From: Psammoneis japonica
Taxonomy: Eukaryota
Length of the DNA stretch: 64,000 bases
Reading direction: 5' to 3'
Assembly (NCBI GenBank): GCA_008632985.1
Contig: QPGO01000045.1
Location: forward strand, 1-64,000
The notes beneath the pieces were generated by a model, which was not told where the DNA came from, made no database searches, and saw only the letters and a program-made list of their open reading frames with translations. Position numbers and translations under genes: made by a program. Shown in pieces: positions 31,460 through 64,000 of this stretch (the stretch's first letter is position 1; the number at the start of each line of letters is the position of its first letter).

Positions 31460-33700
31460 CAAAGGATGCGAACCCGAGGAAGGCCTTTTGTTGCAGTGGG
31501 CAGCTGTTGCACTTTCACATGCCAGAAGGTGGCCAAGAGGACGGGTCAAGTGTCAGGTGGAGAAGATGATGTGGAACAGTTCTTCAAACGGTGCTCCACA
31601 ATGCTCATGAAGTGCTTCAATGTCAACTGCACAAGCGCAATGCTCGTTGCCTCCGGGCAAACGAATCTCTGCTTGCTGCGGCTGCTTCATGTGGTTGCTG
31701 AGAAAGCCACACAAGCAGGGCAGAATTCAAGAAAATTCAAAGAGAGTTGTGTCCATGGATGCAGCTCATCAATGCCATGCTTGCTGAGATGTGATCATTG
31801 AGAGGGGAAGTTGCTGGCTGACACTGGCAACACACGCTCTCCTCTGCAACACATGAAAGTGAGCGAGCACTCATGTTGTGAATGGCGGTGAGCTCACTTC
31901 CTGCATGGGCTGGCACCTGCCACAATGAGGTCACTGCCTTGTGTGTAGAAGACATCACATCAGCTCCAGTCAGTCATCTGGCATCTCACCAAAAACAAAG
32001 CATCGATGGGCGCTGATGGTTCTCAAGAGATGTGTGTGCTGTCTTCTCTGTGGCTGAACCAGCTCGCTGGATCTTCATCACCAACACCTCACCATGAGAA
32101 GCCAGCAGGCAGACAAAAGCCAAAGCATCTCCTGCAAGACTCTCAAGCAACAAGCAGTCCAAAAAGATGTGTGGCCTCTGCTGAGGAAAAGAGCTGGCTG
32201 GCAGGAGTTTGCAACTTTTGCACGTTGATGACAGCACATGAGTGCAAGAGTTGCACGTGATGCAGATTTGAGCTTGTGGCTTCTTTGCAGCCTTTCCCAG
32301 CTGGTCTGTTTGCTCTCCCTGGCACAACCACATTTTGCCCCCAAATGGAAAATGTTTTTGCAAATGTGGGAGATCGTGCTTCCCCTTGACCACTCCCTTG
32401 CAAAACCCAAGTTTTGTGTCTGTTCTCATGCACACATGAGATGAGCCTGAGTTTTGTGAGAGCTGGCCATCAAATCAGGTGTTGAGTCTCTGGGCCCAAC
32501 CACAAACTGTCATTCAAGCTTTTGTGTCAAATGCAAAAGTGCGCATTGTGACAATGTGTTTGTTGAAGAACAACCGAAACCTCAAAGATTCAGTTTTTGA
32601 TTGAGTGCCATTGCTGCTCAACCAAAAGTTGTGCAGATGGCCACTCATGCACCAACAGCACTGCGCACCTTGTTGAGGGCTCAAATTGTCAAGCCTTTTT
32701 TGTGCACTTGCAATGCAGAGGTGCAGTGCACAGAGGTGCACAAACCATTTGTTGTCACCCAATGCAAGTGCACCACTGGCGACAAAACAATTTGTCATTT
32801 GTGCGTGCACCCTGAGTGTGTGAGCGCACATTTGCAAATGACAACAGACAATTTGTGCACCACTTCTGGCAGCAATGCAGAGGTGGGCAACAATTCATCA
32901 TGTGTCAGGCACAGAACTGTGAGTGCTGCAACAAAGCATGAAACACAAGCCAATTGCGTCAATCAGCATCAAATGCAATGATCTGAAGATGGCCCTTGCT
33001 GATCCACAATGCCCAGCACTTGCTCCTCAAACAAGCTGGCTGGGATCAACAACATCAAGGAAGGAATGCTCAACCCAAGTCCAAAACAGAAATCTCAAGA
33101 ACTGGGGACAACAAATCAACTGCAGGTGACACATTGACAGCTTCTTGACCCCATGCACCTTGTCCAACCTTGCCAATTCTTTGGTTGATCTTTTTTGAAC
33201 TCTCTTTCTCTTCTTGTCCTCCTCTTGATTTCCCCAATTACATCTCAAACAAATTGATGCTTCGATGGCAAACTCTTGAGCTGCCTTTTTCCTTTCCTCA
33301 GGGCACTCCAACTGTGCCCTCTCTCCAGCAATTCAAGACTCTGGCGACACTTTGAACAGTCTGTGTGCATGCTGATCACATTCTGTTCATACCTCTTGAA
33401 ACCAGCCATGGCTGTGATGACTGAGCTTGTGGAGGAGATGGTGCCTTTATCCTCTTCATCTTCAATCCTCTCTGCAGTGGGCTACAAGGACTGTCATGTT
33501 GGCACACTTTGTGCAACTCCTGGGAAGTCTCTGTCTCTGAACCCGAACGCTGCTGTGGACATGTCAGTGCCGCAGGGATCATGGCGTTCGTGCTCATTGC
33601 ATTACCTGGGACCCCATTCCTCCTCTGTGTTTCAAATCTCGCTCTCAGCTCTAAAGCGCATTACCCGCACATGTGCACCAGCAACGAACGCATGTCGTCC
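31460..33700. repeat. TpA- and CpG-depleted degenerate repeat island
   Basis: No TA seen by eye from about 31950 to 33235; TG/CA-rich; only spurious Cys/His/Gln-rich ORFs. Confidence 0.65.
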
Positions 33701-42559: not shown

Positions 42560-43880
42560 GTGTCATTGTATGCACTTCAACGCAAGTCTCATTCAATTTC
42601 ACGCAAAATGCCCCCCACCTTCTTTTGCAATTCCATTGCAAAGTCAACTCCTCAACAATGGGTGCAATCAATCACTGCGTTGCCCTCACTGTTGTAGCAG
42701 AGGAGCTTCAGGAAGTCAAGGGCTGACTCCTCAAGATTCTCATTGTCCCAAAAGGATTCCGTCAAATCTCTTTGTGTGCTTCACCCCTCTCTCATGGTGA
42801 GTGAGTTGCCAATCCAAACAAGCAATGACCACACTGTTGCAGGAAGCAGTCTGGCCTTCTTGGGTCTGGTCTTCTTTCAAAGCTGCAGAAATGCAGCTTT
42901 GACAAAAGCCTTGTTGTGCATCTGGACACGCAACTCAACACTGGACGGCAAGTGTGCAACTGTTCAAGCAAGAAGATTGCAGAGTTGACATCATCAGTCA
43001 GGAAGCAATTGTGGAGCCCTTCTCTTGTTTGCTTCATTGTTGTTTTTCATCGCTTTCTCTGCTTCTGTGTGCGGTTGTGGGGACGTGGGGCTGCACTGAC
43101 CACAGCAGAGCTTCTCAACTGCCAAGAGATCCAGCCATGGCTGTTGGGGGCACAGCCATCATTGCTGCTCTCCAAAAAGTCAAAAAATTGAGGTGGGACC
43201 ACTTCAGCTGCTCACAACTGAAATCACGAGTTCAGCCCAGCTGCTCGTGTTTTTGCGCAGCATGGCATGCACTTGCGCACACACCTGTCAGCAAATTCAT
43301 GCGCCATCCACTGTGTCCATGTGCATCAATGGTCAACAGCCTGCCCCTTCTAACCTTCTTTCCAAGATTCACCTGACAAGTGTCCAAGTCAAGCTCCTTG
43401 GTCATGACACGCCCCATTTGCGAGACTCCTCAACTGTTGCACCCACCAGTGGTGTCTTCCTGCCCCCCAGCGCTCAACCCATGATCATCTTGGTGCAGAG
43501 CGCAGAGCTGGGCACCATTTTCTCACACCTTTTTATTTGGCCATTCTAACAAGGCCTCTGCCTCTCCCCCCTGCCCTCCCCAGCCCCTGCCTTGGGCCAT
43601 TCCCTCTCACTTCTGCAAGAGCTCCCAACCAAGCTCCCTTCTCAGTGCGCCAATCTTTCCTCCTCTCTCCACCACTTGAGAATCTCTGCTCACTCCTTAA
43701 ATGTCAGCTCTCTCCCCACCATTTCAGGTCCTCCTCCTTTTCTTCTTCTCCTCGATCCTGGGCTGCCCAGCTCCTCAGTCTCAACATTGGCCTTGCCCTC
43801 TCCAATCACCCATCTCCGGCACCTGCCAGTCACCGCCGCCCGCCTCCGCCCTGCCACCACACGACACACCGCGAGCGCCT
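42560..43880. repeat. TpA-depleted degenerate repeat island
   Basis: About 7 TA in 1.3 kb by eye, TG/CA-rich, no credible ORF. Confidence 0.6.
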
Positions 43881-43942: not shown

Positions 43943-44861
43943 ATGACGAGCGGAGTTGGATCATCAAGCAACGACATGAAACAGCGAAGGCGAGTATGTC
44001 TTTTCGGCTTATCAGCCGACCCACCAACTTCAGACGGTGGACATGGGGGCATCGTGAAATCCCTTGCGAACGAAAGCTTTGATGAAGTGCGAATCATACC
44101 GGTGTATCAACACACTTTCTCGGTAAGGTTCATTCATTCGATGCGAAATTCCAAGGTGCTTTTTCTGACATTATGTTGCTCATAACCCCAAACTGTTTGT
44201 TTCAGGAAAAGAGAGACAGAATGGCATCATACAGAGACCGAGTTGAAATGTGTAGATTGGCGTTTGCTGGCATCCCCCACGTCACTGTGTCGGAGGTGGA
44301 GCGAACATGCTTTGAAAAGAAAGCTTCTGGCTTGTAAGTGAATATGCATTGTAGAACAATGATGAGGATCATGGATATAGAACTAATTCATGTACTCTTT
44401 CCTTTTGGTTGAATAACAATATTTTCCTGAAAAAAAGAAGCGATTGCGAAAAGGCATCCCTGCGAGTTGGTACAGCAGATTTGCTAGACATGCTCTTGGA
44501 GGAAGAACCGGAATCCGATTTTTATTTTGCGCTCGGAGCAGACACTTTTGTGGACTTGACGAGTTGGAAATGGAGGCGATCACGTGATGTGCTTGACTTG
44601 TTGCAAGGTCGATTCGTTGTTGTCTATCGAACTATGGAGGATCCAAAACGACAGGTTTCACTTGACGCAATCAAGAAGCAAGTAGCAAAAGTTGCCGAGC
44701 AATACCCGGGAAACCAAAGAATACTCTGCATTCCAGGCCTTGAAGCTGTATCATCCACCCAAGTGCGGGCATGTAAGAACGAGGCGTTGCTCCGAGAAAT
44801 GGTGGACGCCTCTGTGCTGTTGTACATACGAGAAAACAAGTTGTATGATTTCGAAGATTAG
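43943..44861 (+). CDS. Nicotinate/nicotinamide-nucleotide adenylyltransferase (NadD-like)
   Basis: VCLFGLSADPPT..GH, R.EMC.LAF, GTADLL, FALGADTF.DL..WKW, VSSTQVR, VLLYIRENKLY; introns from 44123 and 44334. Confidence 0.85.
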
Positions 44862-45263
44862 TTTCTGTTTTGACGTTGCCGGATTCGAGCGAGAAGGATT
44901 GAAAATGAAGAAATCTTGGTTGGCATGGACAAAAAATATCAGTGCACTAAAGGTCAAACGTGGAAGCGCCCTGCTACCTGGCTCATTTAGATCGTTTCCT
45001 TCCAAGGCCACGAGGCCGATGGTTTATTGCGATCAAGAGAATTTGCCCAAGGCACCACATTGTTACGAGTTACACCAGAACGCTTTGTTTCGACAAGAGT
45101 ATGTCGCGAGTGCCGTTTCTAATCAAAAACTAAATCATCAACGAAACCACCTCCGGTATGGAGAGCATTGTCGTTCTGGAGTAATTTGTCCGAAGAATGG
45201 GCAGGTCTATCTTTCTCGACGAGGAGGCACGTCGCGAGACTCGAGACGCGAACGAGATGATGA

Positions 45264-46380
45264 ATGAGCGGTCCTGCATCGGGGAGTACTAGTAGGGCTA
45301 GCGACACGAAACAGAGGAGGCGAGTATGTCTTTTTGGCTTATCGGCCGACCCACCAACTTCAGACGGTGGACATGGGGGCGCATCAACAAGGTTTATCTT
45401 TCTCGACGAGGAGGCATGTCGCGAGACTCGAGACGCGAACGAGATGATGAATGAGCGGCGCTGCATCGGAGAGTAGGGCTAGCGACATGAAACTGAGGAG
45501 GCGAGTATGTCTTTTCGGCTTATCGGCCGACCCACCAACTTCTGATGATGGACATGGGGGCGCATTGTCAAAGCTCTTGGAAACGAAAGTTTGATGAAGT
45601 GCCGATCCTACCTGTCTATCAACACACATTCGTTCGATGCGAAAGTTCCAAGGTGTTTTTTCTGCCAAAGTAGTGCTCACAGCCCCAAACTCATTTGTTT
45701 CAGAAAAAGAGAGACAGAATGGCACCATACAGAGACCGGCGTTTGATGTAACTGTTCGGAGGTGGAACGAACATGCTTTGAAAAGAAATCTTCTGGCTTG
45801 AAAGTGAATGCCGTATGCACTGTATCGTAAAACAACAATGGGTTCACAGATAGAAAAATACCTGGTGTGCTATTCCCTCCTGGTTGAATACCGGTACCAA
45901 TTCTTTTTTAATTTCGCGCTCTGAGCAGACACTTTCGTGGACTTGACGAGTTGGAAATGGAGGCGATCACGTGATGTTCTTGACGACTTGATGTAAGGTC
46001 GATTGGTTGTTATTCATAGAACTATGACGGCTCCAGAACGACAACTTTCCCTCTACGCAATCGAGAACAAGTAGCTTAAAAGTTGCCAAGAAACTCCCAG
46101 GAAATCAAAGAGTACTCTTCATACCCGGCCTTGAAGCTGTATTATCCACCCAAGCGCGGCATACAAGGACGAGGCTTTTCTCCGAGAAGTGGGGGGTGCC
46201 TCTGTGCTGTTGTACATACGAGAAACGGATGTAGGAACTCGATTCACGTTACTTTATTTGAGAGAGAAGGATCGACATCAAAGAAATCTTGGACGGTAGG
46301 CACAAAAAATATGAATGGACTAACGGTCAAACTTGGAAGCGCCCTGCTACTTGGGAAATTCAAATCATCTCCTCCAACAT
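45264..46380 (+). pseudogene. Two tandem degenerate copies of the NadD-like gene (exon-1 fragment 45264-45383; longer deleted copy about 45450-46380)
   Basis: ggcgagtatgtctttt-ggcttatc-gccgacccaccaactt repeated at about 43990, 45320 and 45500; later blocks match 44190-45000 with indels and stops. Confidence 0.85.
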
Positions 46381-47214: not shown

Positions 47215-47581
47215 TGCACTATGCTCGAAGAACGAGTGTAAACGAAAGTAGAATAGTGTACGAAAAGTGGAAATTATGAGATTAAATTTTGCTCTGTGAT
47301 TTTTGGTTTCTCCGAACGAGTTCTCAATGGCCTAAAGCTTCTGTACTGCTTCTACAGACAAAAGGCCTTTCGGAGAATATATTCGTGACAACAGATTGTC
47401 CGGATACGATTGCTATTGACACGTAAGATGTCAACATCGTCAATCGATCGTATTTGCAATTCTCGACATCCGATCAACTCTGTGTGATCGTTCTGTCCTT
47501 TGTACGCATCCACGACTGTGGTACGATTGACATATAAATAATATATAATCATAAATATGTATATAACAGTCGCATACTGCA
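47215..47581 (-). repeat. Gypsy 3' LTR (TpA largely retained)
   Basis: Gap-free alignment with 51575-51941. Confidence 0.95.
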
Positions 47582-50500
47582 TTCGCCTCCCTAATTGCAC
47601 ATTAGAGTCATTTGTAAGTGGATTATTCGACGGACATCGACAGTGTCAATAATGTCTCCACTTTCATTGTATTGTGCCATTAGCAATGACTGTTGTTGTT
47701 TTGTATAGGCAATATAGGGCCGTTCCAATTTCCGAATGTCTTTTGAGAGTGACATTGTTTGTTTCTCACTTAATGTGTATATATATAGCATTACGTCGAG
47801 TATTCTCATTGACGTTCTTGTTGATATGAACACAAGGACTAATTGTCCTGGAGTAAGTGTTTTTCCTGATATCGATTGTACATAGCATCGTGCCCAGCAC
47901 TTAATGTACGCTCTTAATTATGGCGTTCACTTACTCACTTGTGGATTTCATGTAGTTTGGCGGGCTTACTTTATATGCCACATTGCTCTGCTGCACTACC
48001 ACGTTTCATAAGTAATAATAAACGATGGTCAAAGATATTATGGCCATTTCGTCTTGATAATCAATCCTGTGATGGTTATGAATTCCATTATGGATTTTTT
48101 TTTTTGTACTTCAACCATCTATCAGTTGGATTTTAATCGTTATTTGGACGTTTCTTTCTGACATACCGGTGTTATTTTGTCATTCCGAAGGCACTGGTTT
48201 CGTGCACTAAGTGGATAAATGTCCATTTTTCTTTTCTTTTTCTAGATCTTTGGCACATCTCGTGTGTCGACATGATGTGTGTTTTAATGTCTTGCCTCGT
48301 ACATTGTACAATACAACCGTACGGGTGTTGTGAGATTGTCTTTTGCCAGTGTGAAGTGGATACGTATAATGTATACCAATCTGTCACTGTTTTTTTCTAA
48401 ATCGTCCTTTAAAAAGGCGATTTTATTCTTGTGACATGAGCATTTTTCGATCTCGCTCGCCTCCACGAAAAGTGTTCGTATGATATGTCGCGTCCGACAA
48501 TTTGGAGGGAATGTCTTTATCCCGTTTTAACGGTAGGACATTGTCGTAGGATTCAATTTTCTATAGTAAGTCGGCTGATCGCGTCTATCGCGACGATGTT
48601 CGCCTTGCCCTCGTTGTATTCTAATTCGGGACTGAAGTTGTCAACGTATGACTTTGTCCGTTGTGTCTTATGATCCGTATATGTATAAATCTGTTGGCCA
48701 AACAGTATATTTCGAAATTTTATAAGTGTTTTCACTATGGACAGAAGTTCTTTTTTCCGTTGTAACGTATAATATTGAAATCCGTGTATGATAACAATAT
48801 AGTTTTTGATTTGATACGCTCCATATTTTCGGAGACTTTTCGTTCCGTACTTGTACTTTTGCCGTTTGACCTTTATTGAGGTGAATTTGGCTAGTATTGT
48901 ACAGGAGATCGTTGAGACTACATGTCTCGATAATAGTAACGTATGACAACGAGATGTCGTAGTGTTCTTTACGTTTTTCTCGTGTTGCGATTGCTTGAAT
49001 CGCCTCCATTTTCTTTGTAATCGATTGCATGTCGTTACGTGTGGAAGTCTTGATAGTTTATTTCAAGTTAAATAGTGAAGGACTTTTGTTGTTAACCTTC
49101 TAAGCGACTGTTCTAGTCGTTTGAATGCCGTATTAAGCTGTCACTTGTGCAGGTGATATTTTGAAGTTACTTTTGTCAGGCACAAACGATCACACATGGT
49201 GGTTCTGACAACTTCAAACCTGTTGTGAGTTCACTCAAGTGTTGCACAAAAATATCTGGGGCTCTGTAGATTCTCATTGGAAGTCCACAGCACTCATTTT
49301 CTCCCCACGGCATGATTTTCGTGTGAGCACGACGTGTGCTTTTTTCATTTGACATGGTGGCATTCCATGTTTGAATCAAATGGATTGCATGTGTGAAACG
49401 TTCTTGCTTCAACAGCATTTCCTGAATATTGGGTAAAGGACACACCACCTGCATGAACCTTACACTGAGCTTCTGAGTGTCGGGTGCGGTCGAACTCGAC
49501 CTGTTTTCTTCAGACAATGAGTCTCAGAGCGACTTGTTCAGAGCAATTTCATTCTCAAGACTTCAATCTTTCATGACAGGTCAAACTCCTTTTGATTGGA
49601 CGCCTCCAAAGACTGTGATAGGAGAAGGTTCTCACGCATCGTGGAATCGCGTCAGATTTTCCACGATGAGATCCACTGATGCTTCCCATGCACTCGTCTG
49701 AGGAACTTTTCAAAACGATTTCAACCTCTTAAGAAGAAGATTGAGTTGGTTGTGTTCATTTGGGTTAGATGCATCGCCGCAGTTGTCACTTGATTAAGAT
49801 TGATGGCGTGACAATGTGAGTCGAGGACCATTGGCTCCATTGTTGACTCCATTCACGGCGTCACATTTTTCAATGTGATCGGTTTTCAGCTTGAAAACAT
49901 CGGCATCGAAGAGTGTGCGAACATTCTTCATAAGGCAATTGCTTCTTCCCATTGGATTTCTTCATTTGCGCAGTCCAATGTGACTTGCAGGACTGGACAT
50001 TAAGTCGCGTCCCATGATCACATCATTTGAACCTGAAGAAAATTTGGTGTTTTCAACACATGCTGTTTGAACATCAGCGTGCCTTAAATTTCGCACAGTG
50101 AGAACTGAGTTCGGTGTTTGCTGTCAGTCGCAAAGAGCTCACCCTTGGTTTCCCAAGTTTTTGGTGGCGGATTCTTGTGTTCTCAACTTTCGCATGAATT
50201 TGCGCAAAATCATGGTTGACGATGTTCCGTTGTCGACAGGAACACGCAGATGCTTTTTTTTTTCTCTCCTTTCCCAAGGAAGTGTTCACACAAATGATGA
50301 CTCCTGGACCAGTGTGAATTGTTTTGCCTTTTTTCTAGGCTTCCCAATGTCCAGCAAAGCGTGCAATTCGTGAACAGACCAAAATTGTTCTTCGGATTCA
50401 GTCTGGATCATCCGATCAAATTGGCATTTTTCTTCACTGAGGGTGTCAGAATCTGATTCTTTGCCCTCATGCTCTTTTTCTTTGTTCAAGGAACTCGCTT

Positions 50501-51574
50501 TGAGCATTTTTTGAACCGCCTGATCAATCATGACGTTCATCTCTTTTTTTGCGAGCGGCATTTTCGTTGTCGCGACGCGACCGCGTGCGATTGCCATTTG
50601 AACGGCGCATTTTTGGGTCTCTTTCAGAGTCACCCTTGCACTCTTTTGCTGGCTCATTTTTAGAATGGCTTCAATCCGTGATGTGGGTGTTCTTTTTTCA
50701 AAGATGAGACCTTGCATTCACTTTGGATTGTTCTGGCACCATGTGGGAGACCATTTTTGGAACCAAATTTGGAGCCTTTTTTATTTTGGAACCAACTGCG
50801 CTGTCAGAGCCTGAGTTGACATGTTTTTTCGTCACGGACGTCATGAACGACCTTCAGATGACTCAAAACTTAATCATCTCATCAAGGATGAGTTGCAATG
50901 GTTGATTGTTTTGGACAGTAGACTGATGCTGCCATCCTTGCGGTGCGAGTGATGGCTGATAAATCAGCGCTCGGTTTCCCGCTAGATTCGACTTAGAATC
51001 CATCTGAGGGTCGTGTGGACTCTCATCGTTGACCTCTTGGGTCTGACAGAGGCTTTCTCGCTGTCAAGCAGCTCTGGTTTCTTCAGGTCGTCTCGAAAAT
51101 AATTTCCCTGATTCTGAAGTGCATTTCCTCGGAGGACATGAGTTGTGAGACGCTTGAGGCACTTTCCAACGATTCCCTCTTGCTCCTTGGACTCGAGGAT
51201 CATCGACTCGGTCTCAAAAAACTCTCCAATGGTCTCTCCTTGCATGGTAGACGCATTTCTCGGATCTGATCGACTCGGAACTTGCGTTCTCTGCAACCAT
51301 GACTTGGTGTAGATTTTTTGACAATGCGGTGCACTTGAGAGCCCTTGATCCTTGGGTGCTTGGAACAGACCGCATTGGAGCGAATCCTCTTGTCTGGCAG
51401 ACGAAAAACAGCGTTCCATCTTGAGGTGCTGCTCGGCTTGAGCTTCTTCCGCTCGGAAATCGATTCCAGCAGAACTGACGCGATTCGTTCCTGTTCACAG
51501 AAGAATTTGCAAAGGCACATTGGTTAAAATTTTCATTTTCCGTGCTTTTTGCCTTCTGTGGTGTGTGTGCACAA

Positions 51575-51941
51575 TGCACCATGCTCGAAGAACGAGTGCA
51601 AACGAAAGTAGAACAGTGTGCGAAAAGTGGAAATTATGAGATTAAATTTTGCTCTGTGATTTTTGGTTTCTCCGAACGAGTTCTCAATGGCCTAAAGCTT
51701 CTGCACTGCTTCTACAGACAAAAGGCCTTTCGGAGAACATGTTCGTGACAACAGATTGTCCGGATGCGATTGCCATTGACACGCAAGATGTCAACATCGT
51801 CAATCGATCGCGTTTGCAATTCTCGACATCCGATCAACTCTGTGTGATCGTTCTGTCCTTTGTGCGCATCCACGACTGTGGTGCGATTGACATGTGAACA
51901 ACATGTGATCACAAACATGCACACAACAGTCGCACACTGCA
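51575..51941 (-). repeat. Gypsy 5' LTR (TpA hypermutated)
   Basis: Identical to 47215-47581 except at TpA sites. Confidence 0.95.
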
Positions 51942-53295
51942 AAGCAGCACCAGCAGCACACAACACCAGCTGTGCCAATGATTGCACAAAGGGAGCATTG
52001 CATTCCTTGTGGGGTTGCCCGGTGGGGCCATCTGTGTGGCAGTCTCAAAAAAAGCAAAAAACTCATCAGATGCCCCCCACAACATTCAGCAACCAAGTCA
52101 GACCATTTGGAAGGCCAACAGCACTGCACAATTTTGGTGACTCAGTCAGCTCAAGAATGCTGCAGTCATTTGGAGTGACATGCTTTCTCTGCTGCTGTGG
52201 CAACAACCATTGTTTGTTGCTGCTTCCACCATCTCTGTTTGCTCTTGCAGCTCAAGAATTCAGGCTTGCATTGTGGCACAAAACAAGGTCATTTCAAATG
52301 TCTTTTTGTTGAAAGAGACACCCGCCTGCATCAGTGAAAGAGAGTTCAAGGACCATGCTTCATCTCAGAGGCTTGCACCACTGTCTTGAGAAAATCACAC
52401 CTGTCCTCCAGAGACAACAAAAGGGAGAGGAGCACAGAATTTCTTAAATTTCTGCTGGCAGTTGCTCACTGCAGCCCACTTCTGGCTGGCACATTGGCAA
52501 AGTCATGTGTGGTGCTGCTGCTGGCCAGCACTTTTGTGTGCCAAGATTTTCCAAAGTTTTGCTCCACCACCTCAAGGACCATGCACCAATCCAATGGTGC
52601 AACTCTGCAGCAACAAAAGAGCCTGTTGACTTTTTTGCTGTGCCAAGCACCTGGGCTGTGTCTTGCACAACCAGAGTTTGTTGTGGGTGCACTGACAACA
52701 CTTCTTGCAGAGAGCAGCCAGAGAAGCTGGGGCAAGAAGCAGAGATGAGCACTGGCATTTTTTGACACTCTCCTGGGGAAAGAGAGGCCCACCCAGGCTC
52801 CACTTCTGTCTGCAACTCATTGACACAACTTCATTGACTGTGGATTGGCAAGCATGGTGGGGAGGCCCCTGTGTTGATGAAAAGACTGCAGGCTCTTCCT
52901 CTTCTAGAAAAAGGACAAGGCTGGTGCGCACTTTTTTTCAAGACTTTCAAATGTCGAAAATCATTTTTCACATTGAAGAACATGCCCAGTCAAACAAAGC
53001 AAGTCTTGACATTGATGCTGGAAGCACGTGCAACACTCCACCAAAGAGGGACACTTTTTGCAATTTGGGGCACAAGACAGTGCCCAAGTTTGGCTTCTCC
53101 TCCTGCAAGAAGCCTTTGTTGGAGCGCTGCAGCTTGCTGGTCTAGCTGGCACATGTTTGGCTTCAGAAACAACCCCGAACTCACCGCGTGTGTCTCACAA
53201 GCACATTCCCAATGCTGTTGACCACCATTGCCATGTCAACCGGGTGAAAAAGCCAAAAAAGTGAGCACAAGACCCACAACACAATCCAAGCTGTG

Positions 53296-53740
53296 TGCAG
53301 CATGCATGCAGACAAAAGGTTATTTTGTCACGCCCTTTGTGACATTTAAAGGCTGCAACACGTCGCCGTGATGCATCAACTCTCATCAGTGGCTGCATGT
53401 TGCACTCCTCCCCATGTGTCACGCGTCCATGCGGCTCTTTGCTGACGTGCACTGACACTGCACGGTTTTGGTGGAACAGTGTGGGTGCGTGCGAAGGAAC
53501 ACACAGAACTGCACAGAGTTTTGCGCGTTCGACAGTGATCAACGTTGCTGCAGACAACTCCCACTCAGGGTTTCGAACCCCTGGCCTCCTGCCCAATGGT
53601 TGCGATGAACCACTCCGCTGTGAATTCACAACGCAGCATGCGTGCAGACAAAAGGTTATTTTGTCACGCCCTTTGTGACATTTAAAGGCTGCAACACGTC
53701 GCCGTGATGCATTGACTCTCATCAGTGGCTGCATGTTGCA
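53296..53740 (-). mobile_element. TRIM-like miniature LTR element
   Basis: 109-bp direct repeats 53296-53404 and 53632-53740 with inverted termini, TSD TGTG (53292-53295, 53741-53744), PPT ggggaggag (53405-53413, minus). Confidence 0.8.
53558..53625 (-). other. tRNA-like Pol III A/B-box segment inside the TRIM
   Basis: Minus strand cAGCGGAGTGG (53610-53620; A box TRGCNNAGYGG with T>C) and GGTTCGAAACC (53569-53579; B box), 30 bp apart. Confidence 0.55.
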
Positions 53741-54459
53741 TGTGAGTGCAAATTCACCACATTGTCTGCATTGTCAGCGCATCTTTGCACCGCAACACTG
53801 TTTGTCTGTCCTGTGACAAAAACCACCTTTGACCCTTGATGTTCCAACACACTCCTTTGCATGAGCCGTCAGTTGGTTGGCCTCGTGCACATCAAGTGCA
53901 GTGCCAGGAGGATGACACTTGGAAATCATGCCACCCAACACCACTTTGACTGCTTCATTGATTCAAAAGCCCACATCATCTGACTCTGCCAACAAATGAT
54001 CACTGTCAGGACAATCCTTTGTCACATGTCCAACCTCATCACATTTCTGGCATTTGATTTGCGTTTTCTTGTTCTGGGCAAAACTTGCAACCTCAGGTTT
54101 CTTGTTGTTCCCAAATGTGTCCAACACCTGCAATGCCTCCCCTTGGTCACATTGGGGTGATCATCACCCCTGACAGAAATTGAAGGCAAATGGCAAGAAT
54201 TCAAACAACAACTCCTCACTGCTGTCTAAACAGCAGATGAGTCTCCGCTCAGAGACCGTTGCAGGAGCCGAAAGACGTGCAAGTCGGCACAATCGGGCTG
54301 CTGTTGTCATTCTTGTGAGCCTTGTGGCTCGAAAGCAAACTACATCGCGCGTGAACGCGCGGAACTAAAGCACACAAAACTGTGCGCGGTAAACTAAACA
54401 GCGCGCGATGCTTCGCGCGCATCCAAATCCTGTTCAAATCCTGTCACTCCCCAGTTTGC

Positions 54460-57400
54460 TTGAGGAGCCACAGAAACAGATTCGACTTCGGATGGAATGA
54501 AGTTCCAGAACATGAGGGGGCGGAGAAGGTCCCAGATTTGGGAGCAACCCCAATGCTTGCTGAGAATGTCAGCAGGGTTGCGGGAGCCTTCGATGAAGTG
54601 GAACTCAAGGCAACCAGAGGCAATTGCCTCACGCACACGGTGGAACGACAGTGCGGTGTGTCGCTTGTGTAACTTGGAGTGCGGGATGGTGGCACTGTCT
54701 ACAACCGACTTGTTGTCACCGAACATGTAACTGACATTGCGGATCGGGACGCCAAGGTGGCGCAGGGTGATGCGCAGGTCGACAATCTGCTCAACACAAT
54801 TCCTTGCGGCAACAAATTCAGATCCAGGTTGCAGTCTCCACGGTGGCTTGTTTCTTGGAGAACCAATCAGCTGGGAATTTGTTGAGGAAGTGGAGCATTC
54901 CCATGACAGAGCGTCCGGTGAGCATGCAATGGCACAAGTTTGCATCGACGTAGTGGGTGGCAGTGATGAACTTGCCAAGGGGCGGTGGAGCGTCCTTCGG
55001 GATCATCTCTTCTGCTTCACCATGCACGGAATGCATCCATTCATAGGCCGGAGCAGGGAGATCCGAATGGTCGGGCTCTTCCGTGCGAACGCGGAGAGCA
55101 CCGTGTCGCATCTTGGAGAGGCACCCACAGACGCGTTTGGCACGATCCAAGTGGCCTTGACGGGGCGCAGCTCGGAAGCTAGAGAGTGACATGACAGCCG
55201 TGGCAATGTCAATTCGACCAAGGGACACTGCCCATTGGAGTGAACCAACAAGAGACTGGAACTTGTGAATGCCATCGGGTCCCAGCAGTTTGGAAGTGTC
55301 CAGTTCGGGGTGGTCACCCTTCTCTAGAGGTGACAGGGCGTTGGTGGCAGGTTTCTCCCCAAACAGTCGGGCGCAACTGTCGACCATGCGCTCGATGTAC
55401 TTGCGCGGAGACAGGCACAAGGTTCCATCGGGGTCCCGGGAAAAGTCGCAACCCAGATGGAACTCAATGGGTCCCGCACCCTTGAGCTTGAACTTGTGCT
55501 TTTCCGTGAGAGTGTCGACGAAAGATTGAGGGTCCTTCATGGCAATGGCGAGGTCATCCACATAAACGGCAATGTGTTCACAGTGGTCGCCGTTCCTGCG
55601 CATCCAAATGTCGGGTTCGGCGCGGCAGGGGAAGAAGCCTTCAGCTCGCAGGCAGTCGGCGAAGCGCTCGTGCCAGCGGAGACCGGAGCTGCGCAGTCCA
55701 TGCAGTGCCTTGTGGATGACAAGGATGTGTCCTTCGAGTTTGCCAAATTCGGGTCCAGCTACAATGTAAAGCTTCTCCTTGGTGGTGGCTTCAAGGTGGG
55801 CATTGCCAATGTCGGTGGCCCATGTCTCCAGCTCGTTGAGTTCGGCCAGGAAAATCATCAGCCGAAGGCCACGGAGGGAGACCACTCCGGAGTAGACACT
55901 GTCGACAGGTACGTCCGTGAGGTGCCCGTCGGCTACGAGTCGTGCCTTGTGGCGACCGTCGTGTTTCACGTCGCACACCAGGTGCACTCGGATCTTCTTG
56001 TGTCCCGCAGGAGGAGTGGAAGACTTGAAGGGCCCGCAGTCATGGAAGACTTCGTATTCGTCGAGTTGGTCCATCTCGAGATTAGTTGCGTCTCCCCACT
56101 TGCGGTTGCCGTTGCGTTCGTCTAGTGACATGGCGTGTTTGTAGTTCCGGGGAACTTCGCATCCGTACTTGTAGCGAGGTGCAGTGCGGAAGGAGCGAAG
56201 CTTGGCTTGGTTGGCCATGCGAAATAGCTTCTTTTGGCGCCTCGCGATGGTGCGGAACCGCTTCCAGCCATCCGTGTCGAGGAGTCCGTTCTCTCGTGCA
56301 TAGATGGCACAGGTGACGGGGTCGTCCTTGGCGATGATGGCAAGAGGCTCGGACGTGATCTCCCCACTTTCCCATTCAAGCATGATGTTGTAGCTTGAGC
56401 CTTTCCAGGTTGGGTCGTGAGGCTTCAGAGGTCCTTCGTGTGACACGATGCGTCGAAATTTCCAAACAGTGGTGTCTTCGTCTTCTTGCTCAATGTGATT
56501 CATGATGTCATTGCAGGCAAGGACTTCCTCGTATTCGTCATTGTTGACAGAGCAGACGAACTTAGTGAGCTCGGGATTGCCGTTCACTTTCCATTCGTGG
56601 TCTTCGACGGCCTTGACGATGCGAGCTCTGTGGCGTTGTCCGTCCTCTTGTGGCTGCATGAGGAAGGTACGTCCAATGATGTCTTGCGGATCGAAAACTG
56701 GCATCTTGGGTGTCCTGATCTCCCCATCAGGAGAATCGACGGGGTTGTCGTCATGGCGAGATTTGATGATGGGTTCAGGTGGCTCCCCATCAGGAGGATC
56801 AAGACGCAGGTTTCGAACGGCAGGATCGGGGGTAGCGGAGCGAACGTTGGACCGGCAGAGGATCTTCTGAGTCTCGTCAGATAGAATCTTGAAGGTCATC
56901 TGGTGGCCGACGTGCTCAGCAATGCCAACGAAGCGTCCACGCAACTCACGGGATTCGGACGGCCAATCAGAGTCATCGAGGTGGAAGTGCACTGGTTCCC
57001 ACCAGTGAAAGCGAAGCAATGGGCTGATGTCCGGGGTGGATCCAGTGAGAGTCTCGAGGGGCGTGCGCCAGTGGAGACGTGGGGACGCTGTGTGGTTGAG
57101 CATGAAGCACACATGCATGAGCGCCAGCAGCCATGTGTGGGCGGGCGAACCAAAACGGTCCATGACAGTGTTCGCCATGCGCTTCACGGTCTGGTGTCGA
57201 CGCTCGGCAAAGTTTTGGTGTTGCTGGTGAGGCTCACTTTGCCAGCTGGAGATGAAGAGGGCGCGTAGGATCCCGAGCACTTTGTTGCTGATCTCAACTT
57301 GAGCACGGTCGCTAATGAGTTTGGATGGGGCACCACGTTCACGGATCTGATCCTCGAGTGTGTTGACAAACTCTTTGTCCGTCTCAGTGCCGTAGACGTC

Positions 57401-60061
57401 AGTGACGGTAGACTCGGTGCCAACAAACAGTTGGGCGCTGGTGCAACCAGAGTCGACGGCCGGGGTGTCGGCACAAACGGTGTCAGTGGCGACAGGCTCG
57501 TTGCGGCGGTGCACATTAAGGGCGGGGTTGGGTGATTTGTGGGCCTTGCGAAGGTGTGCACCGGCGGGCATGCGGGCGTACTGCGTGGTGCAGTCAAAAG
57601 TACGACGGACCGTGTCGGCAGGTAGGAAGCCAAAGCAAGGCCGAAGAGACTCGAAGGGGGGGTCCTTGGGCTGTACAGTGCGCTCCGGAGGTGGAACGTC
57701 ATCGCCCTGGGGGTCAATCGCATGTAGATGACACTCGGAGAACACGTCGTCGTTCGGAATGAGGTGATCATCGAGGGCGGACGCGTGATCGGCAGACAAG
57801 GAAGCGGACAAGATGGTCTCGTTGACAACGACACGGTGACGGCAGTTGCCGCACTCGTCAAATGGGTTGGCGGTGGGATCGTCCTGCAGGTCAGAGATCG
57901 CGTCGTGCCACTGGTCGTCGTCAGTGACAGAGTGATCGAGGACGGAAGGGTCCCATGTGTCATCACCGGTGAGGATGACATGGGGCAGGGTGTCCCATTC
58001 GGCGTCAGTGCAAGGTCGCATGGCAACATGAGGCAGGCCAGCCTTGATGTCAATGGGGATGACACAGCCATCAGGAGTGGCAACACGTTGCAAGCCGTTG
58101 GGCACCTTGACAGAGCGATCGTTGACATCCTGTTTGTGCCATTCGAGCTGGCCGCAGGAATGGATGGTCTTGCCCTTTCCCGTGCATGCGCACTGATGGA
58201 GGATGGCGATGACGGGACCACGCTGGGTCTCAATGACGGCACCAGCGGTGACAATGGGGATGTCCACCAATTGGTGATCGTCAATGCCCTGAACGTCGAC
58301 TTGGCGAGAGGTGCGTGCAATGACGCGAACGTCGTCGCCAGCAATGCCGCCGTTGGCCCCACGATCGACTAGAGCGCCAGTGCGTGTGGAGCGATGAGCA
58401 GAGGCAGAGTAAATGACATTGTGGTTGTCAACGCGGCGGCAAGTGCGGCCGTTAAGTTCTGTGTCATCTGCAGGAGCTGGCGGGGTAGAGGAAGCGGCGG
58501 ATGGCCCCGGTCGACTGGCATTGGGGGCTTGGTTAGGTGACAACAGACGTTGCAGATCACCGGGTGGCAGTGGCTTGCACTTGGTGAGGTGCGCCAGGAT
58601 GGGATTGTCCGAAGTGGCGTCCACATGTGCAGCGGAGTCACCACAGTCAGCAGGAGTCGTGTTGGATGAGTTGACATCACCGTCGCTCCCAAGGTGTTGG
58701 TCGTGAAGGTTGGCCGTAACAGACTCATGGCAGTTGCTGGCTCGCGGGTTGCGGGGAGGCGGACAAGAATGCTCAAGGATGATCGCCTTGGAGGAATCGG
58801 GCAACGAATCCCAGAGCCGTTGGTGGTCGGGAGGGAGACGTCTCCATTGGACACCGGTGAGGCTGGGACCGCGGGTGCAGGCAGCATTGGCTTGAAGGAC
58901 GTCAACGTCGCTGTCAATGTCGTAGAACACATCGTCGGACGGTTCCTCGGAGCAGACGTCGTGTGCGCATGTGGCGCGTCGGGGAGCTCTAGGTGTCGTC
59001 TTGGGTTGAAACGTGCTGTCGCACTGAGCTGCCGCAGAGAGGAGCAAGCCACAGCATTGATCGCATGTGAGGCTCTTGCCACTCTGTGTACGATGCTGAT
59101 CAGCTTGGTTCTTGACAGCACGGAGTTCCTCGACAGGGTGCACGGCATTCTCGAGCATGACGCGCTTCTGTCCTTCAGAGAAGTGGTCACTGGCGGGGAT
59201 GAGTGCCTCGCACTTGCGCAACTGATCTTGCCAATGAAGGATGAACCCGTGGGTCGGACCTTTCCAAGTGCCATCACCAAGACGTGCGGTGGTGAGGTGC
59301 GTGAGCAGGGTGGAGGACTCGACAGATGCGCGGGTGGAGGCAAGCGCGTGCTCAGACAAGGAGCGGCAGACGGTCTGTGCGTCAGAAGACCCCACATTGT
59401 CGCGAATGAGAGCCTTGCCCTTGTCGGTGAGAAGGATGCGTTCGAAGACGGCGAACATGTGCTTTTGCTGTTCAGCAAAGAGCAGTTTGTCTTCGGGGCT
59501 GGTCGGTTTGTACGACGAGTCTAGAATGCACTCGACGTCTTGGGCACGGGCTTGTGCCACAAGTGAGGTGTGCCAAGTGTGCCACTGCTTGTCAGATTTG
59601 AGAGCTGTGAAAGCAGTGGGATCACGCTTGATGCCTCGCTTGAAGTCTCGCACCAGGTCGCGTGCCTTGGTCGGGTTGGTGACATGTGGAGGTGCAAGGG
59701 GTGAGCTGCCGATGGACACAGAAGACATGTGGTCGGGGCTGAGGCGGTGGGCAAGGAACTCGTCATGCGTGAACAAAGAGGAGTCGTTGGCAACGTCAAG
59801 ACCTTTGTGTGCTTTGACAATGTGCAGACTGACCAGTGCTGCTAACATGTTCTTATAACCACGGGGCAAAGGGATTGCATTGGTGCCGTTGTCGCACTCA
59901 AGCGAGTCGATTTGGGACGGCATGAACGTGAACAGTTCCTGATGTGAGTCCGTGCCGTCTTGGGCCAAAGCCAAACGAAGAGGACTCCCAGCACCTTGGG
60001 CAAGCACGGTTCCAACAACATGCTCGAAACCATCGGTTTGTTGCTGACGAGTGAGAACCAT
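54460..60061 (-). pseudogene. Copia gag-pol polyprotein, Tyr-depleted, frameshifted near 54825
   Basis: LVDRGANG (protease), ISDRAQVE / QNFAERR (integrase), RHKARLVA, YVDDL (RT), SEFVAAR, GDNKSVV, NPADILSK (RNase H, second frame). Confidence 0.92.
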
Positions 60062-60990
60062 GGCAGACAAAAGTGGTGTCAGGACAATCAATTCTGGTTG
60101 GGAAGCGAAGGTAGACTCGAAACTTGGGTGAGAATGGACTTGACTTGAAATGGACTTGACTTGAAATCTTGAACTATCTTAAAATCAGAAGTCGCCGGGC
60201 TTTGTCATCCCGTTCGTTGTTGAGTGCTAAACTTCCCATCCGGTCCGTAGAGTTGTGCCGGCACGTCCGAACCCGCAGCCAGCGGCACTTTGGGTTGCTC
60301 ACGAGCGGAGTAGCGGGTTGTAAACCCCTGCAGGTAAGCTGACTAGAGGTGGACAAGACCCCCGAACCGTTCTTGTTTTTATGTCGGTTGGATTTCCCGA
60401 TCAGGCTGGCCAGTTGACGCAGGCGTTGGGCGCTGTGGACGAACGAACAAACGCGGGAAAGCACCCTCGCCCCAACGTAGGCTGCAATCACGGCCACTTG
60501 CTCTCACAGTCATCCTCGTGGACCTAGCAGAACTGTAGAGCACCAGTGGTCCGGGGTAGATCAGGTGCAATGGACTCGGTGTGCTTGTAGAGTGGCAGCA
60601 AAACCGTAGTCCGAAGAGTGGATAAAGGTTCTTGGCCGTGAAGATATGCATGTATATATATATATGTCTTCAGCGACTAAGATCCTTGAATGTGTAGGGT
60701 TCTTGACCGTTAACCGAGGAATAGGTATATCAAGGGATGTTGATCAAGGATAGACTTGGATATGACCGTTGAATATAAGTCTTCAGCGACCAAAGGTAGT
60801 ATAATCAATCCAGATATCCAGCGGTAAGGAGACTTGACGGTGACGTTAACTTCCTGCCGATGCCCTGGTATTGAATGCGCGTAGACTTGCCGATGTATGT
60901 AGAATATATACGGAGGTCCACGTAGAATTGAAATAGCGTCGTTGGTAAATCAACGACGACGATGGCGGTTGCTCAATGGGTTGACAATGA

Positions 60991-61005
60991 GCAAGACTGT
61001 TAATC
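60991..61005 (-). promoter_or_regulatory. Putative primer binding site complementary to a tRNA-Asn anticodon arm
   Basis: Plus strand gCAAGA CTGTTAA TC directly abuts the 5' LTR; it reads as anticodon stem, CT-GTT-AA loop and start of the 3' stem. Confidence 0.55.
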
Positions 61006-61286
61006 TGACAGAAAATGAAGGCAAATGGCAAGAATTCAAACAATAACTCCTTACTGCTGTCTAAATAGCAGATGAGTCTCCGCTCAGAGACCGTCACAGG
61101 AGCCGAAAGACGTGTAAGTCGGTATAATCGGGCTACTGTTATTATTCTTGTGAGCCTTGTGGCTCGAAAGCAAACTACATCGCGCGTGAACGCGCGGAAC
61201 TAAAGCACACAAAACTGTGCGCGGTAAACTAAACAGCGCGCGATACTTCGCGCGCATCCAAATCCTGTTCAAATCCTGTCAACCCC

Positions 61287-64000
61287 CCAGAGTGAACTGC
61301 TGATGTAAATCTTTCAAGACATGCCATCATTCATTGGCACACTCCTCCATTGGCACTGCCACTGACAACTTGTTTCTTTCTTTTTTCTGGGCATCATCAG
61401 CATCTTTGCTGAACCCATCTTCTTTCTTGGCAATCTCCCCCATGATGATTCTGCCACAGCACATTTCTGCCACCCCCTCAACAAAATGCTCAAGAGCTGA
61501 CGATTGAAACTGCCTTGAAGCACCTTTCCTCCTTCATCTTGATGAATGGTTTGCAGCCACTTCCAAGCCTTGGCCACCTGGACATGTGGGTTTGTCTTCT
61601 CACTTGCATCAAACAAGATCAACACGAGATTTTCTGGTGGTGCTGCCATGATGTTCTCCACTCCTTTGTGACTCTTGCAAACTCCCCACTCCTTCAATCT
61701 TGTGAGGATGAATGGCCTTGGCACATTGTCCCACAATTGTGCCAAATGCACTTGCCTTCTGGATCTTGCAGATCACATTCTGTTTCACACAGTGATCACA
61801 TTGCTTGTCCCAGATTGCCTTGCTCTTCTCCAATGTTGTGTCTCATGATGAAAGCTGCCTCTGACCCCAAAGTCCACAGCCTTTCCCAAGCAGACAGAGA
61901 GATCTGCCCCCATGCCACCCAGCAGCATTGGAGCTCTTTTCTTCAAAGAGAGCATCGCAGCTCAAAGAGCTCTGCAGCCCACTTCTGTTTTCTGCTTGTG
62001 ATCCAACCAACAAGGTCAAGCTCATCTCTGGCTCCACCAAAATGCTGCAAGCCTCTGTGAGTCTTTGATTGAGCCTCGCCCCATTCTTTGAAAGGGGGTG
62101 AGAGACCTCATTGGTGTGTTGGACTCAATGGAGCTCATCACTTGGGCTCAGCAGATTGGCTGCATGTGCCAAAAGGTTTGCTTTGGAGTCTGGATTTCAT
62201 GACTGAAAATTCTGGTTCAAGCCATCCCTGCACCTTGGCAGCCATTTCCAGCCCTGGCAGAGTGTTCTTCAACTCCACACTCTGCATCAAAGCATTGAAA
62301 TCTTCCAACATGGCCATGTTTCACATGGAATGACAAGTGCAATTTTTGCACAAGTTGCCATGGCAGTGTGCTGTGTGGTTGTTTTTGGCAACTTTTTTTA
62401 AGTTTGTGATTGCAGCAGTGGCACCAATTGACAACATGTGAAAAGGACATGATCAATGTGTGTCACAAAGCGCCAAAATGATGCACACTTTTTCCTGTTG
62501 AAATGGCCCTGTCATGCTGCACTCAAGATCTTTTTCTGTCTTCTTGTTGCACTGCAGAAAGTCTGTAAAATGTCATGGCTTTTGTTCAAAATTTATCCGC
62601 ACTGGATCAGATCCCTGTGTTCTTGACAAGGGCCGGTTGATTGTGGTTGAAGAGCCTTTCACAATTGTTGTGACATGTGAAGCAGGAAACAACACTGAAT
62701 GAAAATTGTTCTTGCAGTGCATGTCATCTTAACAAGATGATCTTTGTGCACACCAAGAGTGATTTCAACATGACTCAGTTTTTGTTTGCAATCAATGTGG
62801 CAGACAAAGCAGGAAACAATGGCAAACAAACCTTGTGACTTGCAAGGCTGTGTGCTGTTCACACAATCTGATTCTTGCACGCCACAATTTGTTTTTTTGG
62901 CACTGAGTCTGCTTTTGCTCCCTGTTTTTTCTTGTTCTTTCCTCCTTGCTTTGTTGGCTCTTCTGCCAGTGCTGCCATTGCCCTTTGCTGTCTGCACATG
63001 ACAAGCCATCATCAGACATCTCTTGAGCCAGAGAGCCAGTGCTGAGTTCCTCCATCACCGGTGCACCATGATGAGAAAATCAATGTTTTTGTTGAACAAC
63101 CACTTCCCACCTTGTTCATTGGGAAAGACACCTCCATTGTTTGTTGATTGAGGCTCTTGATTGCTGCCAGGAAGCAACAAAAAGGAGAGACAAGTGTGAG
63201 GGATTGTCATCAAGAAGGTGTGGGGGGACATGAATCTGTTGGTGCTTGAGCAAAGGAAATTGTTGAGAGGTCCTGGCACATCCAAAGAGGAGCATGAGGC
63301 AAATTGTCACTTGAGGAGCTGACAGGGGAGGGAGGTGCATTGCACAGGCCAAAATGGAAGAAAGAAAAGAGTGCTGAGGACACCATTGAAAATGTCTGCA
63401 GAGAGCACACTGGCCATTGTTGTCAGACATCTGACCAGGAGGACAGAGTGGGTTGCATTGCAACAGGGATGTGCCATTGTCGTCAGTGCATGACATTGGA
63501 GGATGAGTTGTGCAGTGTCCAATGGGAAAAAAGGACAAATGCAGCAGAGCAGAAATGGAGCAAAACAAAGGCAGAAAACTGAAGGGTGGAAAAAAGCAAA
63601 CAAATGAAGTTGTTGGCAAGTTTGACATTTGGACAGAATGAACATCATCATTCATGAGTTAAAAGCCAGCATGAGACAAAATTTGCATTTGTGCAAATTG
63701 AGTGTTGTGGTCACAATCATCAGCACAAATGTGAAAATTGTGACAATTGGTCAGTGCTCTTCTGATGGTCAAGCATGGAAACATGTCACAAACTAAAGTC
63801 AGACTGTGAGGCAGCTAAATCAGATCCTTGCAACACATCAACACCTGTGTAGACTGGTGCAAATGTGGTGGACACAATGCCGTTGTTGTTCTGTTGAGAT
63901 GGCTTTTAGAGCAGAGTGTTGAAATGGCTGAAGACAAGGTTGCAAGAACTTTGCATTTTTGACAACAATTGCTGAAGTCACCAATGATGAGTGCAACATT
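61287..64000. mobile_element. Older, heavily mutated repeat relic (right of the Copia insertion)
   Basis: No TA by eye in 61308-62398 and 62732-63659; very few CG; no intact ORF. Confidence 0.65.

Follow-up and report, generated by a model that had tools for sequence, protein, structure and literature searches.

TpA-specific transition hypermutation across a Ty1/Copia-type retrotransposon and its neighbour in Psammoneis japonica

The heritable hypermutation defences against mobile DNA that are known to us, namely repeat-induced point mutation (RIP) and the APOBEC-type systems, all act on cytosine. RIP, as described in ascomycete fungi, is a chromosomal process that strikes mobile elements after their insertion, causes only transitions, depends on dinucleotide context and inactivates its targets; it occurs in bursts that spare unlinked or neighbouring DNA, with fairly sharp borders and strand-coordinated tracts. 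We describe here a locus in Psammoneis japonica that resembles RIP in these respects. The stretch analysed (hereafter the window) comprises positions 1 to 64,000 of the forward strand of contig QPGO01000045.1 (NCBI GenBank assembly GCA_008632985.1), and the system in question is a long terminal repeat (LTR) retrotransposon of the Ty1/Copia type on its minus strand (the Copia element), together with the DNA to its left. Here, however, the direction of change is reversed. RIP, which takes place before meiosis and requires RID or DIM-2 cytosine methyltransferases, converts C to T mostly at CpA and so makes TpA, stop codons and AT-rich DNA, whereas in P. japonica the TpA dinucleotide (TA) is lost to CA or TG, no stops arise and the content of guanine plus cytosine (GC) goes up. 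In place of the TpA excess left by RIP, the affected DNA has an observed/expected ratio (o/e) for TA of 0.14-0.21. The process is specific for TA, makes transitions only, acts after integration and on both strands, is regionally bounded, and is burst-like relative to background mutation.

Several other systems invite comparison. APOBEC3 editing and APOBEC kataegis, which are attributed to a deaminase on exposed single strands, resemble this locus in that their transitions come in clusters, are coordinated by strand and require a particular base on the 5' side; their target is C, converted to U, and retroelements are edited as cDNA before integration, whereas the changes described here affect A:T pairs, followed integration and run across element borders. 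With ADAR and ADAT2/3 (TAD2/TAD3) the locus shares an adenine that comes to be read as G and, for the ADAT type, the requirement for a 5' U or T. Those enzymes act on RNA and their products are not inherited, while the present changes are in genomic DNA and differ between twin LTRs and between copies. Editing in the fungal sexual stage is the subject of PMC13431901. The decay of CpG by deamination of 5-methylcytosine likewise involves a self-complementary pyrimidine-purine step with TG and CA as products, and CG too is depleted in the older blocks of the window; the young stripped elements, however, keep CG at an o/e of 0.87-0.92 while TA stands at 0.14-0.21. In the literature we found no account of TA-to-CA/TG hypermutation of repeats, only cytosine-type RIP and unrelated work, although such a process may have been described in other words or in a paper beyond the literature searched.

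LTR twins and lost tyrosines of the Copia element

Twin LTRs are identical when an element inserts, and any differences between them therefore arose afterwards. The two LTRs of the Copia element (5' LTR, 61006-61281; 3' LTR, 54171-54446; both minus strand, 276 bp) differ at 13 of 276 aligned columns, and at 10 of these the 5' LTR has TA where the 3' LTR has CA or TG; the others are one TG-versus-CA pair (2 mismatches) and 1 transversion. The 5' LTR has its TA sites intact (15 of 15 scorable), and 5 are common to both LTRs, so that 10 of the 15 read CA or TG in the stripped 3' LTR. A second element, a degenerate Gypsy-like LTR element referred to as E1, lies to the left on the minus strand (47215-51941), and its 367-bp LTRs (47215-47581 and 51575-51941) provide a record of the same kind. 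They differ by 26 mismatches at 25 TA sites, one of which has become CG; all are transitions, there is no mismatch of any other kind, and every change is in the right-hand (5') LTR. The chance of 25 events all falling on one side is about 6e-8 by a simple calculation from the counts. Both CA and TG are found among the LTR differences, and the process must therefore have struck each of the two strands once the LTR pair already existed. By comparison, the mismatch spectra of control repeat pairs from other parts of the window are ordinary, with TA-class sites accounting for 1 of 22, 5 of 57 and 9 of 81 mismatches.

The coding part of the Copia element carries a second record, in the form of missing tyrosines. 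The minus-strand frame runs for 1786 codons from stop to stop (54818-60178), and a methionine at 60061, which matches residue 1 of relatives in the alignment, yields the open polyprotein frame of 1757 amino acids (54818-60061, minus strand). A preliminary description had estimated by hand that this frame holds only about 19 Tyr, and the count is indeed 19 (1.06%), with 5.04% His and 2.57% Cys. A protein search retrieved 1530 relatives. Over residues 1000-1786 the 120 best of them have 59-72% identity to this copy; nearly all of these come from metagenome contigs of 6-8 kb and were compared as proteins only. Among them Tyr makes up 3.03-4.97% of residues, with His no higher than 4.62% and Cys no higher than 1.66%. 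Relative to the 88 full-length relatives, the z-scores are -9.4 for Tyr, +9.0 for Cys, +4.3 for His, +2.3 for Ala, +2.2 for Pro and -1.9 for Ile, and the frame contains 0 ATA codons and 1 TTA. These shifts, with Tyr and Ile down and Cys, His, Ala and Pro up, fit what a change of TA to CA or TG predicts.

The positions of the losses were examined in an alignment of 60 full-length relatives (the first 60 in the set of 88), with every column of at least 70% agreement taken as conserved. Of the 781 conserved columns 47 are Tyr, and at these the Copia element keeps Tyr in 15 and has changed in 32 (15 Cys, 10 His, 5 Phe and 2 Trp), compared with 66 changes at the 734 other conserved columns (Fisher p = 1.7e-20). 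Most of the motif positions that the preliminary description had taken for former tyrosines are borne out by the relatives, which carry Tyr, not Cys or His, where this copy has changed: the His of KALHGL (Tyr in 60/60), the His of NAHLEA (60/60), the Cys of HCEHI (59/60), the second His of the same motif (57/60), the second Cys of RVCGCL (58/60), the His of RHLGVP (59/60) and the Cys of HWGCSQ (54/60). Three further columns are ambiguous, namely the Cys of VCDVK (36 Phe, 24 Tyr), the Cys of GCEVPR (41 Phe, 19 Tyr) and the first Cys of RVCGCL (28 Tyr, 17 Cys, 14 Val), and the His of KHDG is native, being present in 58/60 relatives. The motifs RHLGVP and HWGCSQ had been assigned to the 1757-residue frame; they are actually encoded in another frame (54394-55002), behind a 2-bp deletion. 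That shifted tail of RNase H contains 3 further conserved Tyr columns, of which 1 is kept, 1 is His and 1 is Cys. The direction proposed at the outset, TA to CA or TG, is accordingly supported by the conserved Tyr columns and the LTR twins, as well as by the other copies and by the TA content of the untouched parts discussed below.

It had also been pointed out that this class of mutation cannot create a stop codon, and this follows from the genetic code: TAA and TAG themselves contain TA, and TGA can arise from TAA alone, so that no sense codon becomes a stop. There are 0 internal stops in the 1786 codons of the coding frame and 19-91, mostly TGA, in each other frame of the same DNA. The associated suggestion that the element would look intact was right in that the frame is open. 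The intactness does not extend to the end of the protein, where the 2-bp deletion truncates RNase H. This deletion (54824-54826, minus strand) was recognised by frame comparison with other copies and relatives; it falls in a conserved Tyr codon, where other copies in the same sample have an extra CG, G or GT at 54824/54825 and relatives read ...T-Y-GSEFVAAR. The apparent Trp at residue 1785 is a product of the deletion, and the frame ends early at a TGA behind it. Given the invariance of the affected positions among relatives, missense change at Tyr would be expected to disable the protein.

By its sequence features the element is identified as a young Ty1/Copia-type LTR retrotransposon; the preliminary description had named CoDi, the diatom groups of Copia elements, for comparison. 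Pfam RVT_2 (PF07727), the reverse transcriptase of Ty1/Copia type, is matched at 55376-56011 (minus strand, residues 1390-1601) with E = 4e-26 and 92.6 bits against a cut-off of 31.6, and is the sole Pfam family seen in the frame. A region of similarity to the catalytic core of integrase (57086-57388, minus strand; residues ~931-1031 of the stop-to-stop frame) was found by phmmer against PDB, the best match being retroviral integrases at E = 1.6e-4, which is weak but specific; Pfam rve had no match either in this copy or in two relatives. Integrase upstream of reverse transcriptase is the Ty1/Copia gene order. For gag and protease there was again no Pfam match in this copy or the two relatives. 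The interval 54447-54823 (minus strand) encodes, out of frame, the C-terminal end of RNase H and then holds the polypurine tract, GGGGAG, which adjoins the 3' LTR. The LTRs begin and end with TGACAG...CTGTCA (TG...CA ends), and the whole is bracketed by a 5-bp target-site duplication, ACCCC, at 54166-54170 and 61282-61286. Inspection by eye of the sequence that adjoins the 5' LTR brought up no tRNA-like primer-binding site. The relatives have long polyproteins of about 1850-1900 amino acids, and a single uninterrupted gag-pol frame through RNase H is not present here, the tail being out of frame; this copy is an ordinary, dead member of the Ty1/Copia group.

Borders, sequence rules and other copies of the stripped stretch

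A 250-bp profile of TA content, together with change-point fits, was used to divide the region into segments. TA is depleted over a contiguous stretch of about 11 kb (49171-60175; TA o/e 0.04-0.21), from which roughly 70-85% of TA sites have been removed; the o/e is 0.21 in the Copia frame, whereas the genes of the window have 0.57-0.59. To the right, the change point falls at 60174, and a transition zone given by the fit (60176-60399) leads into the untouched end of the Copia element (leader and 5' LTR, 60400-61281, minus strand; TA o/e 0.95), with normal TA spacing from about 60311-60525. This border thus lies within the leader, which reaches from the 5' LTR to the start codon (60062-61005, minus strand). 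To the left, there is a sharp border at about 49170 inside E1: the 5' LTR and 5' half of that element are stripped, while its 3' half and 3' LTR, which form its outer part (47215-49170, minus strand), are untouched with a TA o/e of 0.86. E1 is rich in AT and in stops where it was spared, and its GC content rises from 0.38 there to 0.46 in the stripped part.

The two elements lie on the same strand and yet show opposite polarity, since it is the 3' part of Copia and the 5' part of E1 that are stripped. This arrangement argues that the process was tied neither to reverse transcription nor to element RNA, and a contiguous stretch that cuts into both elements with opposite polarity indicates that the change took place once both were part of the chromosome. 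A single unbroken chromosomal tract of some 11 kb accounts for the stripping of both elements. A gradient linked to reverse transcription, which the untouched Copia 5' LTR had brought to mind, is ruled out by the opposite polarity of E1. Within the young stripped elements the normal CG content, set against the depletion of TA, argues that TA and CG are lost by separate processes, of which the one that acts on TA is the faster. At neither border is there a step in copy depth, and copy number therefore does not set them.

The orientation of E1, on which the polarity argument depends, is indicated by similarity to RT_RNaseH at 48553-49062 on the minus strand (E = 5.8e-5; 23.6 bits, just below the 24.8 cut-off) and by its named Atlas neighbours, 30/30 of which are RT_RNaseH (score 0.90). 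A purine tract beside the left LTR also supports the minus orientation, and a PDB sequence search with two fragments found no match. E1 has no long frame and is flanked by the target-site duplication AAGC.

The changes obey rules of context and strand. Each TA was changed once, even in TATATA runs. Compared with the untouched element ends, surviving TAs are enriched in CTAG (4.6-fold), CTAC/GTAG (2.8-fold), CTAA/TTAG (2.1-fold) and TTAA (1.8-fold) and depleted (0.14-fold) in ATAT and ATAC/GTAT; the contexts ATA/TAT and GTA/TAC are thus favoured and CTA/TAG is spared. On the assumption that adenine is the base that changed, a hand tally of the E1 LTR gives a pyrimidine on its 3' side in 20/24 cases. 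The outcomes are also clustered by strand along the Copia frame, with 12 Cys and 1 His among residues 95-902 and 3 Cys and 9 His among residues 995-1719 (p = 0.001); within the latter part, His is found after a 5' purine in 7/11 cases and after a 5' pyrimidine in 2/15. Such clustering, combined with the neighbour preference, is expected if one strand at a time meets an activity that reads 5'-T-A-Y.

Further copies of the elements were available from four runs, kept as contigs, of one sample in one study, which is probably the source of the assembly itself and so does not amount to independent material. At 80% likeness 21,040 contigs were matched in one of these runs, X1, where single-copy contigs have a depth of ~65; summed depth reaches 70,000-120,000 for Copia and ~10,000 for E1. 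Transitions make up 1167 of 1411 differing places in this run, and 40 of 1418 differences were classified: 14 are single TA-class differences, 14 fall in seven TG-versus-CA pairs, 3 are of the CpG class and 9 are other. At several TAs that survive in the window (54728, 55893/55894, 56142, 56166, 56172 and 56669) other copies read CA or TG in 30-77% of the depth. The site at 55893/55894 is especially telling, being CA in some contigs, TG in others and TA in this copy; an ancestral TA is the sole explanation for this combination. In the Copia leader ~39% of other-copy depth is without one base at 60376. There are also contigs that join 54130-54140 to 61284-61397 and so skip the whole of Copia, some with 25-30 other letters between; these are probably other copies of the flank without the insertion. 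Searches beyond this sample gave no further copies: in public metagenome data a 21-base word from the LTR led to 16 loci, which were unrelated, GC-rich and without a blastn match to the element, and the protein of a relative found no related loci among viral contigs and contigs of prokaryote genomes.

Both Copia and E1 were inserted into older host sequence, referred to as E0 (51942-53236, 53804-54170 and 61282-64000), in which CG has been lost along with TA (TA o/e 0.04, CG 0.12 and CA/TG ~1.8 over 51942-53236). Three more TA- and CG-poor blocks lie at ~2305-3200, 31560-33550 and 42600-43800, by the composition profile. E0 and these blocks have TA o/e of 0.04-0.09, CG o/e of 0.08-0.39 and CA and TG at 1.6-2.0; they have sharp edges and consist of complex rather than low-complexity sequence, the longest TA-free run being 1293 bp (31946-33239). 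No Pfam family was found among the 9 open frames of E0 tested. The CG-poor state breaks off at the very points where E1 and Copia were inserted, and so either predates both elements or is specific to E0. The blocks may represent the end state of TA stripping combined with CpG loss. As for the dependence on duplication that is characteristic of RIP, both elements are high-copy, yet depth is even across the borders and E0, although free of TA, is low in copy number (summed depth 119-125 at 52103-53236 in run X1), which argues against a simple rule of repeat length. Within E0 lies a small high-copy repeat (53237-53803; summed depth ~68,000) whose TA o/e of 0.12 and CG of 0.73 are like those of the young elements, and which holds two 108-bp copies (53297-53404 and 53633-53740) that are 97% alike. 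A contig of single-copy depth (64.8) from the same sample departs from the window at 2 places in 1408 bp: at 51985 and 51987 it has TA and the window CA, so that the two alleles may have been stripped to different degrees.

The remainder of the window is mostly gene-dense and eukaryotic, with long uninterrupted frames that include pyrophosphatase, a proteasome subunit, a MutL homologue, and kinase and helicase domains. The genic part (3300-42500) is itself TA-poor (o/e 0.57-0.59), with CA/TG at 1.10-1.16; either the process might leak weakly across the whole genome, or TA might be avoided here for ordinary reasons. A tandem duplication of ~420 bp (27339-28169) is 92% alike and has an ordinary spectrum, with 7 transitions among 22 mismatches, and several diverged direct repeats at 43972-46377, 74-94% alike, also have ordinary mismatch spectra. 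An assembly gap of 568 N (1737-2304) adjoins one of the TA- and CG-poor blocks.

Candidate mechanism and competing explanations

We consider it probable that the young Copia copy underwent TpA-to-CpA/TpG hypermutation after insertion by enzymatic deamination of adenine, with the effect of a defence. An enzyme of this kind would deaminate adenine to inosine, which is read as G, in the context 5'-T-A-(Y) on either strand. It would meet one transiently exposed single strand at a time, over tracts of one to a few kb and in one or a few bursts. Conserved Tyr codons (TAY) would become Cys (TGY) or His (CAY) without the appearance of stops, and the activity would serve as, or at least have the effect of, a genome defence in which mobile elements are killed by missense. 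The A-to-I enzymes of the TadA/ADAT2-3 family act on adenine preceded by U or T. A more far-reaching version of this proposal, which we put forward only tentatively and hold to be somewhat doubtful as a whole, is a defence that mirrors RIP. In this version an adenine deaminase that naturally acts on DNA, or some comparable activity aimed at TpA, would sweep silenced tracts of kilobase length on one strand at a time and convert TpA to TpG and CpA, killing by missense mainly at Tyr and without making stops, so that its victims would keep the look of intact genes, and in combination with CpG loss it would leave old repeats with neither TA nor CG.

A number of points weigh against the reading that we prefer. 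The observations are all from a single window, the four runs belong to one sample and study and are not independent, and the classes of difference from other copies come from 40 of 1418. The 5 changes of Tyr to Phe, 1 of Tyr to Trp and 1 double change of TA to CG lie outside the simple rule, and the reading does not account for the positions of the borders. By depth E0 is low-copy, which does not bear out targeting by repetition. With many copies of the family and no record that spans the stretch, the sharp borders could be mosaics of assembly or haplotype. Finally, we know of no natural DNA adenine deaminase that is used for genome defence, and chemistry directed at thymine would leave the same pattern.

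This last possibility, which we regard as fairly unlikely, is that thymine at TpA in silenced DNA is modified, for instance oxidised by a TET/JBP-type enzyme to 5-hydroxymethyl- or 5-formyl-uracil, and that its mispairing with G would lead from T to C; in a variant of the idea, N6-methylated adenine is deaminated. Since TpA is self-complementary, T-to-C change at R-T-A and A-to-G change at T-A-Y are indistinguishable from sequence, and 5-formyluracil does mispair with G; some protists place modified thymine preferentially at TpA. On the other hand, conversion of 70-85% of sites with zero other changes would demand a base that miscodes with very high efficiency; inosine, which is invariably read as G, meets this demand more readily than oxidised thymine. 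The mosaic explanation accepts that the hypermutation is real and holds instead that the 11-kb stretch with its sharp borders was put together from stripped and unstripped DNA, by the assembler, by recombination or by gene conversion. The depth of the Copia family, 70,000-120,000 against ~65 for single-copy DNA, makes this conceivable, particularly as no record spans the stretch, and the single-copy-depth contig that differs at 51985 and 51987 hints at allelic differences in stripping. However, both elements have matching target-site duplications (ACCCC and AAGC), contigs of single-copy depth cross the outer junctions, though by less than 31 bases, and the untouched parts are the ends that face away from each other, as would be expected of a single stretch; a mosaic origin would need the coincidence of two separate joining events. 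We therefore judge a mosaic to be quite improbable. A sequencing artefact from base modification was also considered, but contigs of ~65 depth from the same sample agree with the window in the flanks free of TA and CG, with 2 differences each. For the switch from Cys to His near position 57300, resection of a double-strand break was entertained as an idea; the orientation of the outcomes fits it, whereas the LTR data further to the left give a mixed picture.

The remaining explanations would move the changes to another stage, reverse their direction or deny them a special cause. Editing of element RNA or cDNA before integration, whether by an ADAR/ADAT-like A-to-I activity or by a deaminase on single-stranded cDNA in the manner of APOBEC3, has in its favour that A-to-G change with a 5' T resembles the work of known A-to-I enzymes and that Copia alone, with an untouched 5' LTR and leader and a stripped 3' LTR, fits the time that minus-strand cDNA spends single-stranded. 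Such editing would affect one strand with a fixed polarity and be confined to the element; at this locus both CA and TG outcomes are found among the LTR differences, E1 on the same strand shows the opposite polarity, which largely refutes the idea, and stripping extends to the DNA that separates the elements and belongs to no LTR. RNA editing, moreover, cannot make twin LTRs differ, and we consider editing before integration to be very improbable. A comparison of two LTR sequences gives no direction in itself, and the low GC (0.38) and many stops in the untouched part of E1 could suggest that the TA-poor state is original and that the TA-normal parts have suffered RIP-like change of C to T at CpA/TpG. 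This reversal is scarcely credible: Tyr is present in 54-60 of 60 relatives where the Copia copy has His or Cys, CA and TG variants coexist at one site among the copies, the supposedly mutated parts have a TA o/e of 0.86-0.95 with CA/TG of ~1 and hence no RIP-like excess of TA, and the TA-poor frame is open, whereas RIP makes stops. The opposite direction is refuted for Copia by the Tyr columns; for E1 the direction rests on parsimony. Equally hard to credit is the view that there is no special process, only slow genome-wide decay of TA or selection against TA/UpA. The TA-poor genic background would agree with it, but it does not account for 25 one-sided TA changes with no others between the E1 twin LTRs, for the loss of invariant Tyr from the catalytic region, or for sharp borders that are unrelated to coding and beyond which, within each element, the TA o/e returns to about 1.

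Meaning for genome defence and annotation

The window of P. japonica shows a process with the same logic as the cytosine defences but aimed at the A:T pair of TpA. Because GC rises and frames stay open, RIP indices would miss such a process, and annotation based on open reading frames would call its victims intact genes. The LTR twins, on the other hand, are a clean readout with almost no background, and the process should thus be measurable genome-wide from existing data. If a DNA adenine deaminase is responsible, it would be a new natural enzyme activity of biotechnological interest, the counterpart of the engineered adenine base editors. The process would also explain why some regions of the genome contain neither TA nor CG.

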